Positions 29,997 through 33,093 of a stretch of 64,000 bases of DNA are shown here, one piece after another (within the stretch, counting starts at the first letter, position 1; each line of letters starts with the position of its first letter). The notes below the pieces were generated by a model. It was not told where the DNA came from, searched no databases, and saw only the letters and a program-made list of their open reading frames with translations. The position numbers were made by a program, and so were the translations under genes. The DNA is from Escherichia coli (GTDB taxonomy: Bacteria; Pseudomonadota; Gammaproteobacteria; Enterobacterales; Enterobacteriaceae): the NCBI RefSeq assembly GCF_044647545.1, contig NZ_CP172818.1; one strand, given 5' to 3'.

Positions 29997-31055
29997 TCAT
30001 GCGGGGGTCTTTTGACGAGCTGCCGCGTCCTGGCGGGAGTGCTCAAGCAGGTTCTGCAAATAATGCAGCGTGACTGCAGGGACCAGCGGCGCGATAGCCG
30101 TGAGATCGTTTTTCGCCAGCAGTTGACGTACCCGGGAAGCGGATATCGGCATCTCCTGGTAACGCAGCCGCTCAATTTCAACCAGTTCGATGGGCGGTGC
30201 GGAGATAGTCGGCGTTTCCAGCCAGTAGCGCATATCCTGGTTGTACTGGGCGGTAACGCGACAAAAGGGTTCAGTACCGACAAAGCGGTGAGTTACACCC
30301 AGCGCGGGAGCGAGGTACTGACGGAAAATCTTCAGATCAATTTCGGTGTAACAATGGTTAATGACGCTCTGTTCTTTAATGAAGTAGCAAGGGAACGTAG
30401 CGCGGGAGATGATGTATTCGGAGCCGCGATGCACAGTCAGGCGTGGAATATCGGCGGTGCCTTTTAACACCAGATCCAGCCGGTCTTCATAGGGGAAGCG
30501 TGAAGAATCTTCTTTGACTAAAAACAGATGCAACCAGTCGCACTGTGCCGCAGCCTGTTGAATCAGATAACGGTGACCATTCGTAAAGGGATTGGCGTTC
30601 ATCACAATGCAGCCAATCTTGTTCCCTGGATGACGAAATTTTTTCAGCGATTCGGCATAGCGTTTCAGTCGCGTGGCGCTGTTTTCCATCAGCACCATCA
30701 CGCCGGGTACGCTGGTCAGCGTGGAAAAACCGCACTGGCGGAACAGCGCCTCGTATTCGGTTTTGGTATAAATAAACAGATGCGTGCTGTGCCGCTCATA
30801 GGCGAGGTTTATCAATTCAGTGGCTAATGTCAGCGCCAGTCCTTCACCGCGAACGGATTCACTGATAGCAACGCATTTAATAATATTTCCGGCAATTCCA
30901 CCGCACGCGATAAGCTTTTCATCGCGGGTTACGGTAATAAATACTTCGACTGTGGTGTCAACGCTCAAATCATTTTCATGCAGGAATTGGGCGATTTCCG
31001 CCATTTTTTTATTTTCTGAACGTTTTACACGGGTGAAAATATCATTGCCGAACAT
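29997..31055 (-). CDS. citC: [Citrate (pro-3S)-lyase] ligase
   Basis: 352 aa from ATG at 31055 (ORF-track start 31142 is an extension); first gene of citCDEFXG-citT. Confidence 0.9.
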   Translation of the reverse strand: MFGNDIFTRVKRSENKKMAEIAQFLHENDLSVDTTVEVFITVTRDEKLIACGGIAGNIIKCVAISESVRGEGLALTLATELINLAYERHSTHLFIYTKTEYEALFRQCGFSTLTSVPGVMVLMENSATRLKRYAESLKKFRHPGNKIGCIVMNANPFTNGHRYLIQQAAAQCDWLHLFLVKEDSSRFPYEDRLDLVLKGTADIPRLTVHRGSEYIISRATFPCYFIKEQSVINHCYTEIDLKIFRQYLAPALGVTHRFVGTEPFCRVTAQYNQDMRYWLETPTISAPPIELVEIERLRYQEMPISASRVRQLLAKNDLTAIAPLVPAVTLHYLQNLLEHSRQDAAARQKTPA

Positions 31056-31434
31056 AATAAATAGTATCCTGAAGGTGCATGTTGTTATCGATTTGCAACG
31101 AATGTTGTTCGATGTTGCAAACTGATAACCTTTTATTTTCACTTGGGAGAAAGGGGGGCGATCGAGGTATATCTTTTTCTCCTTTCGCTATACATCCTAA
31201 GGAGTATTGCTGCGTGAAATTTTGATTTATTTCACATAGAGTTAGTGGTTTTTTATTTATTTAATGGTTTTAAGTTTTTTAATTAATGTAATTACGAAAT
31301 GACCCGCAGGTTTAAGTGATTTAATTGATTTAATGAATAAAATTTGCCACGATTATATTTAATATCTATGTATTTTGATTCAACATTTTAATTACATCTG
31401 TCAAAGAGGCTCGGGACAACCCGCAAGGAAAACA
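31056..31434. promoter_or_regulatory. Divergent citC / dpiB control region
   Basis: 379-bp very AT-rich intergenic region with tandem gatttaat direct repeats (31318-31325 and 31327-31334) and further ttaatg/ttaatt motifs; expected location of DpiA and CRP sites. Confidence 0.5.
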
Positions 31435-33093
31435 ATGTTGCAGCTTAACGAGAATAAACAGTTTGCATTTTTCCAAAGACTGGCATTTCCGCTGCGTATC
31501 TTTTTGCTGATTCTGGTGTTCTCAATATTTGTCATTGCAGCCCTGGCGCAATATTTTACGGCCAGTTTTGAGGACTATTTAACGCTTCATGTGCGCGACA
31601 TGGCAATGAATCAGGCAAAAATTATTGCTTCTAATGACAGTATCATCAGCGCAGTGAAAACGCGTGACTACAAGAGGCTGGCGACCATCGCTGACAAATT
31701 ACAAAGAGATACTGATTTCGATTATGTGGTGATTGGCGATCGGCACTCGATTCGTCTTTACCATCCTAATCCGGAGAAAATTGGTTATCCTATGCAGTTC
31801 ACCAAACCGGGCGCGCTGGAGAAAGGGGAGAGCTACTTCATCACCGGGAAAGGGTCAATTGGCATGGCGATGCGTGCCAAAACGCCAATCTTTGATGACG
31901 ATGGAAAAGTCATCGGCGTGGTGTCGATTGGCTACCTGGTGAGTAAAATCGATAGCTGGCGGGCTGAGTTTTTATTACCGATGGCTGGCGTGTTTGTCGT
32001 GCTGTTAGGGATTCTGATGTTGCTATCGTGGTTCCTGGCCGCGCATATCCGTCGGCAAATGATGGGCATGGAGCCAAAGCAAATCGCACGCGTGGTCCGT
32101 CAGCAAGAGGCGCTGTTTAGTTCGGTTTATGAAGGGCTCATTGCGGTGGATCCGCATGGTTACATTACCGCCATCAATCGTAACGCAAGAAAGATGCTGG
32201 GTCTGAGTTCCCCCGGACGGCAATGGTTGGGTAAACCCATTGCTGAAGTGGTCAGGCCCGCCGATTTCTTTACCGAACAGATTGATGAAAAACGTCAGGA
32301 TGTGGTGGCGAACTTTAACGGTCTGAGCGTTATTGCCAATCGGGAAGCTATTCGTTCAGGTGATGATTTGCTGGGGGCCATTATCAGCTTTCGTAGTAAA
32401 GACGAAATTTCCACCCTCAATGCACAACTGACGCAAATTAAACAATACGTCGAGAGCCTGCGCACATTGCGACACGAGCATCTCAATTGGATGTCGACGC
32501 TCAATGGTCTGTTGCAGATGAAAGAGTATGATCGCGTGTTGGCGATGGTGCAGGGGGAGTCTCAGGCCCAGCAACAGCTTATTGATAGCCTGCGCGAGGC
32601 GTTTGCCGATCGCCAGGTGGCGGGGCTGCTTTTTGGTAAAGTGCAGCGCGCCCGCGAACTGGGGCTAAAAATGGTCATCGTCCCCGGAAGTCAGCTTTCG
32701 CAACTGCCGCCAGGACTGGACAGCACCGAGTTTGCCGCCATTGTTGGCAATTTACTTGATAACGCCTTCGAAGCCAGCCTGCGTAGCGATGAAGGAAACA
32801 AGATCGTTGAATTATTCCTCAGCGATGAAGGCGATGATGTGGTGATTGAAGTCGCCGATCAGGGCTGCGGCGTTCCAGAGTCTCTACGAGACAAAATATT
32901 TGAGCAGGGTGTCAGTACGCGTGCTGACGAGCCCGGCGAACATGGCATTGGGTTGTACTTGATTGCCAGTTACGTAACGCGCTGCGGTGGTGTTATCACT
33001 CTCGAAGATAATGATCCCTGCGGTACCTTATTTTCAATCTATATTCCGAAAGTGAAACCTAATGACAGCTCCATTAACCCTATTGATCGTTGA
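31435..33093 (+). CDS. dpiB: Sensor histidine kinase of the citrate two-component system
   Basis: 552 aa from ATG at 31435; two TM segments flanking a periplasmic domain; H-box LRHEHLNWMSTL; 32-bp overlap with dpiA. Confidence 0.93.
   Translation: MLQLNENKQFAFFQRLAFPLRIFLLILVFSIFVIAALAQYFTASFEDYLTLHVRDMAMNQAKIIASNDSIISAVKTRDYKRLATIADKLQRDTDFDYVVIGDRHSIRLYHPNPEKIGYPMQFTKPGALEKGESYFITGKGSIGMAMRAKTPIFDDDGKVIGVVSIGYLVSKIDSWRAEFLLPMAGVFVVLLGILMLLSWFLAAHIRRQMMGMEPKQIARVVRQQEALFSSVYEGLIAVDPHGYITAINRNARKMLGLSSPGRQWLGKPIAEVVRPADFFTEQIDEKRQDVVANFNGLSVIANREAIRSGDDLLGAIISFRSKDEISTLNAQLTQIKQYVESLRTLRHEHLNWMSTLNGLLQMKEYDRVLAMVQGESQAQQQLIDSLREAFADRQVAGLLFGKVQRARELGLKMVIVPGSQLSQLPPGLDSTEFAAIVGNLLDNAFEASLRSDEGNKIVELFLSDEGDDVVIEVADQGCGVPESLRDKIFEQGVSTRADEPGEHGIGLYLIASYVTRCGGVITLEDNDPCGTLFSIYIPKVKPNDSSINPIDR

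Follow-up and report, generated by a model that had tools for sequence, protein, structure and literature searches.

The tandem repeats in the divergent spacer between citC and dpiB of Escherichia coli are very likely half-sites of an operator for the response regulator DpiA (CitB), whose gene lies 1.6 kb downstream, and the tandem is the visible tip of a larger phased structure that lies far beyond chance. Four independent lines of evidence point to this assignment: the repeats fall among the best-conserved columns of an alignment of 19 spacers from seven genera, an 18-bp module built from them scores highest of all sites ahead of dpiB/citA-like kinase genes at 35 of 35 distant loci, the MaeR operator shares both sequence class and 9-bp period, and the promoter truncation DTR305 abolishes citrate induction. 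The original prediction had read the repeats as plausible DpiA half-sites arranged as direct repeats, and these results support that reading. Its two copies were correctly recognized, but the picture was incomplete, since they represent only two of seven half-sites. Anaerobic citrate fermentation in E. coli is switched on and off from this region, and that CitB/DpiA binds the spacer and is required for induction is taken from the literature. Since locus, regulator and binding were all known beforehand, our finding mainly confirms and sharpens textbook-level regulation; the half-site grammar, the spacing to a CRP-type box and the deep conservation are a modest refinement that comes from the present analysis.

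The window analysed here is a stretch of 64,000 nucleotides of E. coli DNA. NCBIfam equivalog models place citC (29997–31055, minus strand) and dpiB (31435–33093, plus strand) on either side of a 379-bp spacer (31056–31434), with bit scores of 593 for CitC, 1227 for DpiB and 520 for DpiA; the minus strand carries citX, citF, citE, citD and citC, the plus strand carries dpiB and dpiA, and dcuC comes next. RefSeq annotation of the identical DNA agrees that this is the E. coli citC-dpiB (citA) divergent control region, so the 379-bp divergent spacer was named and delimited correctly at the outset. The 901 bases around the spacer are found, labelled citC and dpiB, in 5419 of 5426 complete E. coli genomes, and the spacer itself is 99% identical to that of K-12 MG1655. 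The extreme AT-richness remarked on originally is borne out by a GC content of 31.9% in the spacer and 22.6% in its AT core (31211–31400), compared to 51% in the whole window. The dpiA gene at the locus encodes a Response_reg domain and an HTH_64 domain (Pfam PF20714, ‘DpiA-like’, E-value 1.6e-48); a search for solved structures found none covering the HTH_64 domain of DpiA.

The tandem itself is exact. GATTTAAT starts at precisely 31318 and 31327, as had been claimed, and the full repeat unit is the 9-bp sequence TGATTTAAT. The repeated hexamers noticed alongside it are also present in three copies each, TTAATG at 31261, 31283 and 31330 and TTAATT at 31279, 31321 and 31388. An exact-match search for the tandem gave two matches in none of 100 shuffles of the window. 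The perfect 9+9 tandem alone is nonetheless weak evidence: when the spacer was dinucleotide-shuffled 2000 times, 99 shuffles had a run of at least nine matches at some period between 6 and 15, and for the AT core the count was 158 of 2000, that is, 5–8% of composition-matched shuffles equal it.

That frequency would suit an account in which slippage or accidental substitution recently produced the perfect TGATTTAAT duplication in Escherichia and the duplication as such does nothing, and so would the history of the first copy, half-site B2. Outside Escherichia B2 reads TTGTTTAAT (in Edwardsiella TTGCTTAAT or TTGCGTAAT), and it does so in E. whittamii as well, unlike the other nine Escherichia spacers. 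In those nine of the ten examined, including E. coli and E. albertii, two substitutions make it identical to the second copy, B3, which is TGATTTAAk in Escherichia, Salmonella, Citrobacter, Hafnia and Buttiauxella. However, conserved half-sites occupy both positions in every enterobacterial genus aligned, which indicates that the two substitutions swapped one functional half-site variant for another; the repeat did not arise de novo. Furthermore, the copy number of the tandem is constant among the ten Escherichia sequences. A functionless accident is therefore unlikely, and we favor the reading of both copies as DpiA half-sites.

The array around the tandem provides much stronger statistics. 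On its plus strand the spacer contains ten TTTWAK cores, against a single one on the minus strand. Seven of the ten follow exact 9-bp steps, in a run of four (Table 1) and then at 31311, 31320 and 31329. Five pairs of cores lie 9 bp apart, a number that none of 2000 shuffles matched; likewise, none of 2000 shuffles had five core pairs at any single spacing between 6 and 15. The TTTWAK pattern was defined post hoc, after the E. coli sequence had been seen, and it was for this reason then tested, and confirmed, in other genera. The cores pair into three 18-bp modules of the form GGTTTTwAK-nnnyTTAAT, which we call A12, A34 and B12, with an additional half-site after the third. In these terms, the two copies originally noticed are the second half of the putative third module and the extra half-site. 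With a position matrix derived from non-Escherichia genera, A12 and A34 are the top two matches in the 64-kb window and B12 is the third. Each half-site approximates T[T/G][A/G]TTWAA plus one spacer base, and the module consensus is GGTTTTTAT-TTGTTTAAT (GGTTTTTATTTGTTTAAT). All three modules and the extra half-site point in the direction of dpiB, and the distance from A34 to B12 is 42 bp, or four helical turns. On the K-12 chromosome the predicted sites fall at about 652048–652083 and 652108–652134.

Table 1 Features of the citC-dpiB spacer, in window coordinates.
Feature	Position	Strand	Remarks
Predicted citC −10, TAGGAT	31194–31199	−	TAnnAT at a kept distance from the box
CRP/FNR-type box, TTTGA-N6-TCACA	31221–31236 (centre 31228.5)		Invariant columns of the 19-spacer alignment
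Modules A12 (31248–31265) and A34 (31266–31283)	31248–31283	+	Four 9-bp-phased cores at 31251, 31260, 31269 and 31278
Module B12, AGGTTTAAG-TGATTTAAT	31308–31325	+	Predicted DpiA dimer site
Perfect tandem, TGATTTAAT x2	31317–31334	+	Half-site B2 (31317–31325) and extra half-site B3 (31326–31334)
Conserved block AATyTGyMACGAT (AAATTTGCCACGAT in E. coli)	31339–31353		From the 19-spacer alignment
AACA-N6-TTACA	31382–31396		Invariant across seven genera; 39–53 bp ahead of the dpiB start codon (ATG), within the promoter region of that gene

To follow the array through relatives, we used a scan of reference genomes with DpiB, which gave 80 loci. Divergent citC and dpiB genes with ~330–440 bp between them recur in Escherichia, Salmonella, Citrobacter, Hafnia, Buttiauxella, Atlantibacter, Edwardsiella, Yersinia, Providencia and others. 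Among 27 spacers from 14 genera, core-to-core distances on the kinase strand were 9 bp in 59 cases, 18 bp in 37 and 27 bp in 12, while any other distance occurred at most nine times; the opposite strand of these spacers showed no peak in core-to-core distances. In the alignment of 19 spacers from seven genera, the repeat and array positions are among the best-conserved columns. The extracted units alternate between a GGTTTTwAK type and an nnnyTTAAT type, and this alternation indicates that the true unit is the 18-bp module. The position matrix was trained on nine non-Escherichia enterobacterial spacers, and its performance in close relatives is not an independent test, since the regions are orthologous.

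The matrix was also applied to more distant loci, reaching Orbales and Betaproteobacteria. We scanned ~6.5 kb on both strands at 35 loci where the kinase is only 38–61% identical, drawn from Yersinia, Providencia, Moellerella, Pragia, Leminorella, Gilliamella, Frischella, Schmidhempelia, other Orbaceae, Paludibacterium and Aquitalea. At all 35 the best matrix match lay less than 450 bp upstream of the kinase gene and on that gene’s strand, and composition-matched shuffles of these upstream regions reached the observed score in 0–4 of 500 trials. Gilliamella has a CitS-like citrate:cation symporter divergent from the kinase gene instead of citC, together with a DpiA-like regulator, and this indicates that the module travels with the two-component system and not with citC.

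An array of phased T-rich repeats could instead be structural DNA, either an intrinsically curved or UP-like tract or a site of H-NS, Fis or IHF nucleation, that silences or shapes the promoter region. T-tracts every 9 bp are expected to bend DNA, and the core has a GC fraction of only 0.226. The titles of the papers concerned, moreover, describe DpiA as binding ‘A+T-rich’ targets without a sharp consensus. Against this, the conservation is base-specific and includes G residues in an AT-rich context (GGTTTT, TGATTTAA); it is also strand-specific, and it follows the kinase/regulator pair down to ~40% protein identity and beside other neighbor genes. The sequence also fits the MaeR half-site, which is validated by mutagenesis. 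We thus regard a purely structural role as quite unlikely and retain the interpretation of the repeats as DpiA half-sites.

MaeR of L. casei, a Cit-family response regulator, offers the comparison with a characterized operator that had been put forward as a way of checking the repeats, and it is the only mutagenesis-validated operator of the regulator family that we used for comparison. MaeR protects three direct repeats TTATT(A/T)AA, the first two of which are 1 bp apart; mutation of the central TT in both sites leads to no binding, and acetyl-phosphate enhances binding (PMC5457438). Taken from the primer sequences of that study, the wild-type operator reads TTATTTAA-C-TTATTAAA. The two systems share AT-rich 8-mer direct repeats with a 1-bp gap and hence a 9-bp period, and the E. 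coli sequence TGATTTAA-T-TGATTTAA-T agrees with the TTATTWAA class at seven of eight positions per half-site, as does the consensus of the other genera, TTGTTTAA (7/8). As in E. coli, the L. casei operator lies in a divergent spacer, between maeP and maeK, beside the kinase gene; phosphorylation-enhanced binding is a feature of MaeR. L. casei differs in phylum, in responding to malate and in having three repeats rather than seven, and a GGTTTT-type first half-site and a CRP box are not described for the MaeR operator.

Published experiments on the citrate system itself point the same way. CitB footprinting and genomic SELEX on the E. coli citC-citA spacer have been published by Yamamoto et al. 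(2008, Biosci Biotechnol Biochem 72:3011; 2009), and EcoCyc annotates the sites. Their system, in which CitA/CitB (DpiB/DpiA) controls citCDEFXGT and citAB, has the same locus, regulator and divergent promoters as the one analysed here, with no biological difference. A literature search for a ‘CitB box’ or a DpiA ChIP motif returned nothing beyond PMC12405535, which describes a citrate biosensor built on C. rodentium DpiAB and PcitC. In that work the truncation DTR305 abolished the citrate response, and the authors call it a deletion of the DpiA operator sites, placed by alignment to the EcoCyc annotation of E. coli. The DTR305 forward primer anneals at the equivalent of window positions 31221–31248, so that the CRP-like box and the promoter are kept and the arrays are removed, in a deletion of about 190 bp that takes away more than the repeats alone. 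For the Klebsiella citS-citC spacer, CitB and CRP sites are reported, and by that published description it resembles the E. coli region in its A+T-rich CitB targets, divergent layout and cAMP-CRP co-activation. It differs in being a paralogous locus whose divergent partner is citS rather than a kinase gene.

The paralogous regulator DcuR of the E. coli DcuS/DcuR pair belongs to the same domain family as DpiA. Abo-Amer reportedly described in 2004 a DcuR motif consisting of tandemly repeated (T/A)(A/T)(T/C)(A/T)AA, and ATTTAA and TTTTAA fit that hexamer. Upstream of the DcuR targets dcuB, frdA and dctA we found no 9-bp-phased arrays, and module matrix scores there were at most 7.6. The citC-dpiB array thus does not share its site architecture with these three DcuR targets.

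A conserved CRP/FNR-type box adjoins the modules on their citC side. This box is the canonical TGTGA-N6-TCAnA in Orbales and Paludibacterium; in E. coli it matches TGTGA-N6-TCACA at nine of ten positions, and its left half-site TTGAT fits FNR too. In most enterobacterial genera examined, modules start at +19.5, +37.5 and +79.5 from the box centre, and a few genera lack one or two of these three offsets. The start of B12 at +79.5 recurs in nine enterobacterial genera and in Paludibacterium, where the module offsets are +18.5 and +79.5. On the other side of the box, 12 of the 13 representatives of Enterobacterales have a TAnnAT element on the citC strand, 29.5–34.5 bp from the box centre. From this spacing, we predict that citC transcription starts near 31187 on the minus strand from a class II promoter with the box at −41.5, which would put the modules near −70, −88 and −130. 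A generic scan of the spacer for sigma-70 promoters and terminators returned no −35/−10 pair and no sites, and a missing −35/−10 pair is expected for an activator-dependent promoter. Klebsiella citrate fermentation promoters are reported to be under CRP control, and PcitC is reported to be cross-regulated by cAMP-CRP and NarL (PMC12405535).

These distances lead us to propose, with somewhat less than even confidence, that the DpiA/CitB operator is a rigid composite and not a loose ‘A+T-rich target’: 18-bp modules, each of two 9-bp-phased direct half-sites, would be locked at +19.5, +37.5 and +79.5 from a class II CRP box. Enterobacterales, Orbales and Chromobacteriaceae would all keep this layout, with a half-site grammar shared with the Firmicute MaeR. 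If not described before, such a composite would give HTH_64 response regulators their first usable recognition code at the level of the family, and, if true, it would suggest that CRP and DpiA form a fixed nucleoprotein complex from which both divergent promoters are served. Knowing the half-site grammar precisely would also allow the DpiA/CitB regulon to be predicted across Proteobacteria and would help in the design of citrate biosensors such as that of PMC12405535.

We hypothesize that under anoxia and in the presence of citrate, DpiB would phosphorylate DpiA, and that DpiA-P would then fill the modules head-to-tail, as dimers or higher oligomers. With CRP bound at −41.5, DpiA-P would activate citCDEFXG(T) transcription leftward, and the one array would also let it activate the rightward dpiBA promoter in an autoregulatory fashion. 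We infer both the base contacts and binding stoichiometry of DpiA at the array and the role of the 42-bp (four-turn) gap between the second and third modules.

Orbales (four loci) and Paludibacterium show a simpler layout. Here a canonical CRP box (TGTGAT-N4-ATCAnA) precedes one GGTTTTTATGGTTTTAAA module by 18.5 bp, and the genes for a CitS-like symporter and a citA/dpiB-like kinase flank the two, in what resembles a pared-down form of the E. coli architecture.

Further conserved sequence lies on both sides of the array. By pattern alone, TACTCCT (31200–31206, minus strand) is a NarL-type heptamer. It directly abuts the predicted citC −10, is shared by Escherichia, Salmonella, Citrobacter and Hafnia, and agrees with the nitrate repression that has been reported. 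On the dpiB side of the DpiA array, before the gene starts, sits the block AATyTGyMACGAT (Table 1). The AACA-N6-TTACA element closer to dpiB reads TGTAA-N6-TGTT on the minus strand, an 11-bp direct repeat that resembles an ArcA box. An assignment to ArcA finds no support in the ArcA ChIP paper and its supplements, from which the locus is absent.

These neighboring elements bear on whether the arrays might be bound by another regulator, NarL, ArcA or FNR, instead of DpiA. Nitrate, oxygen and cAMP-CRP are all reported to affect the promoter (PMC12405535), and NarL-like and ArcA-like elements do occur nearby. However, these elements lie elsewhere in the spacer (TACTCCT at 31200–31206 and TGTAA-N6-TGTT at 31382–31396), neither the heptamer of NarL nor the 11-bp repeat of ArcA fits the cores of the array, and the ArcA ChIP paper does not list the locus. 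Binding of the arrays by one of these regulators is thus highly improbable, and DpiA remains our preferred candidate.

DpiA has been linked to plasmid destabilization and to the beta-lactam-induced SOS response. Among other reported DpiA targets, we found no convincing module with the matrix upstream of exuT or appY, in the pSC101 origin or in oriC. In K-12, the mdh-argR spacer contains AGCGTTTATGCATTTAATTGCCGTAAT, three 9-bp-phased units 118–144 bp upstream of mdh, a reported CitB target; this array is weak, with a matrix score of 8.2 and a p of about 0.07 for a region of such size. The module therefore does not account for every reported DpiA interaction, including binding at origins.

Several minor observations concern the region as a whole. 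An Rfam scan for RNA elements in the spacer gave only a chance snoRNA match (E-value 0.057, 17.6 bits compared to a gathering score of 65) and so points to no RNA element. The predicted 132-nt citC leader (31056–31187, minus strand) has a computed fold of −25.2 kcal/mol with a z-score of −2.7; it contains an Escherichia-specific 16-nt inverted repeat (31084–31129) and a block, TGATAACnTTTTnTTTTCA (31121–31141), that is conserved across genera. A 101-residue GTG-initiated reading frame on the plus strand (30820–31125) runs antisense within citC and extends into the spacer. It corresponds to nog1, the EHEC ‘novel overlapping gene’ (PMC4683798), and primer Z0762+21F from that study maps to 31100–31123 with one mismatch.

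Strain differences were also seen within the species. In 60-bp megablast queries for population-level constraint, the identity bands of two queries mostly reflected lineage SNPs of the window strain and were uninformative about constraint. At window position 31267 (about 652067 in K-12, NC_000913.3), only K-12 MG1655 among ten Escherichia spacers has A in place of G. The change replaces the second G of the GG that opens module A34 (TTTAATGATTTTAAG), a G that is invariant in 19 of 19 aligned spacers, and it might weaken the site in the laboratory strain. In the BL21(DE3) assembly NZ_CP081489.1, dpiB is joined to a truncated EF-Tu fragment and secE-nusG, and homology to the window starts only 76 bp before dpiB (~31359), so that this rearrangement parts the whole DpiA array and the citC promoter from dpiBA.
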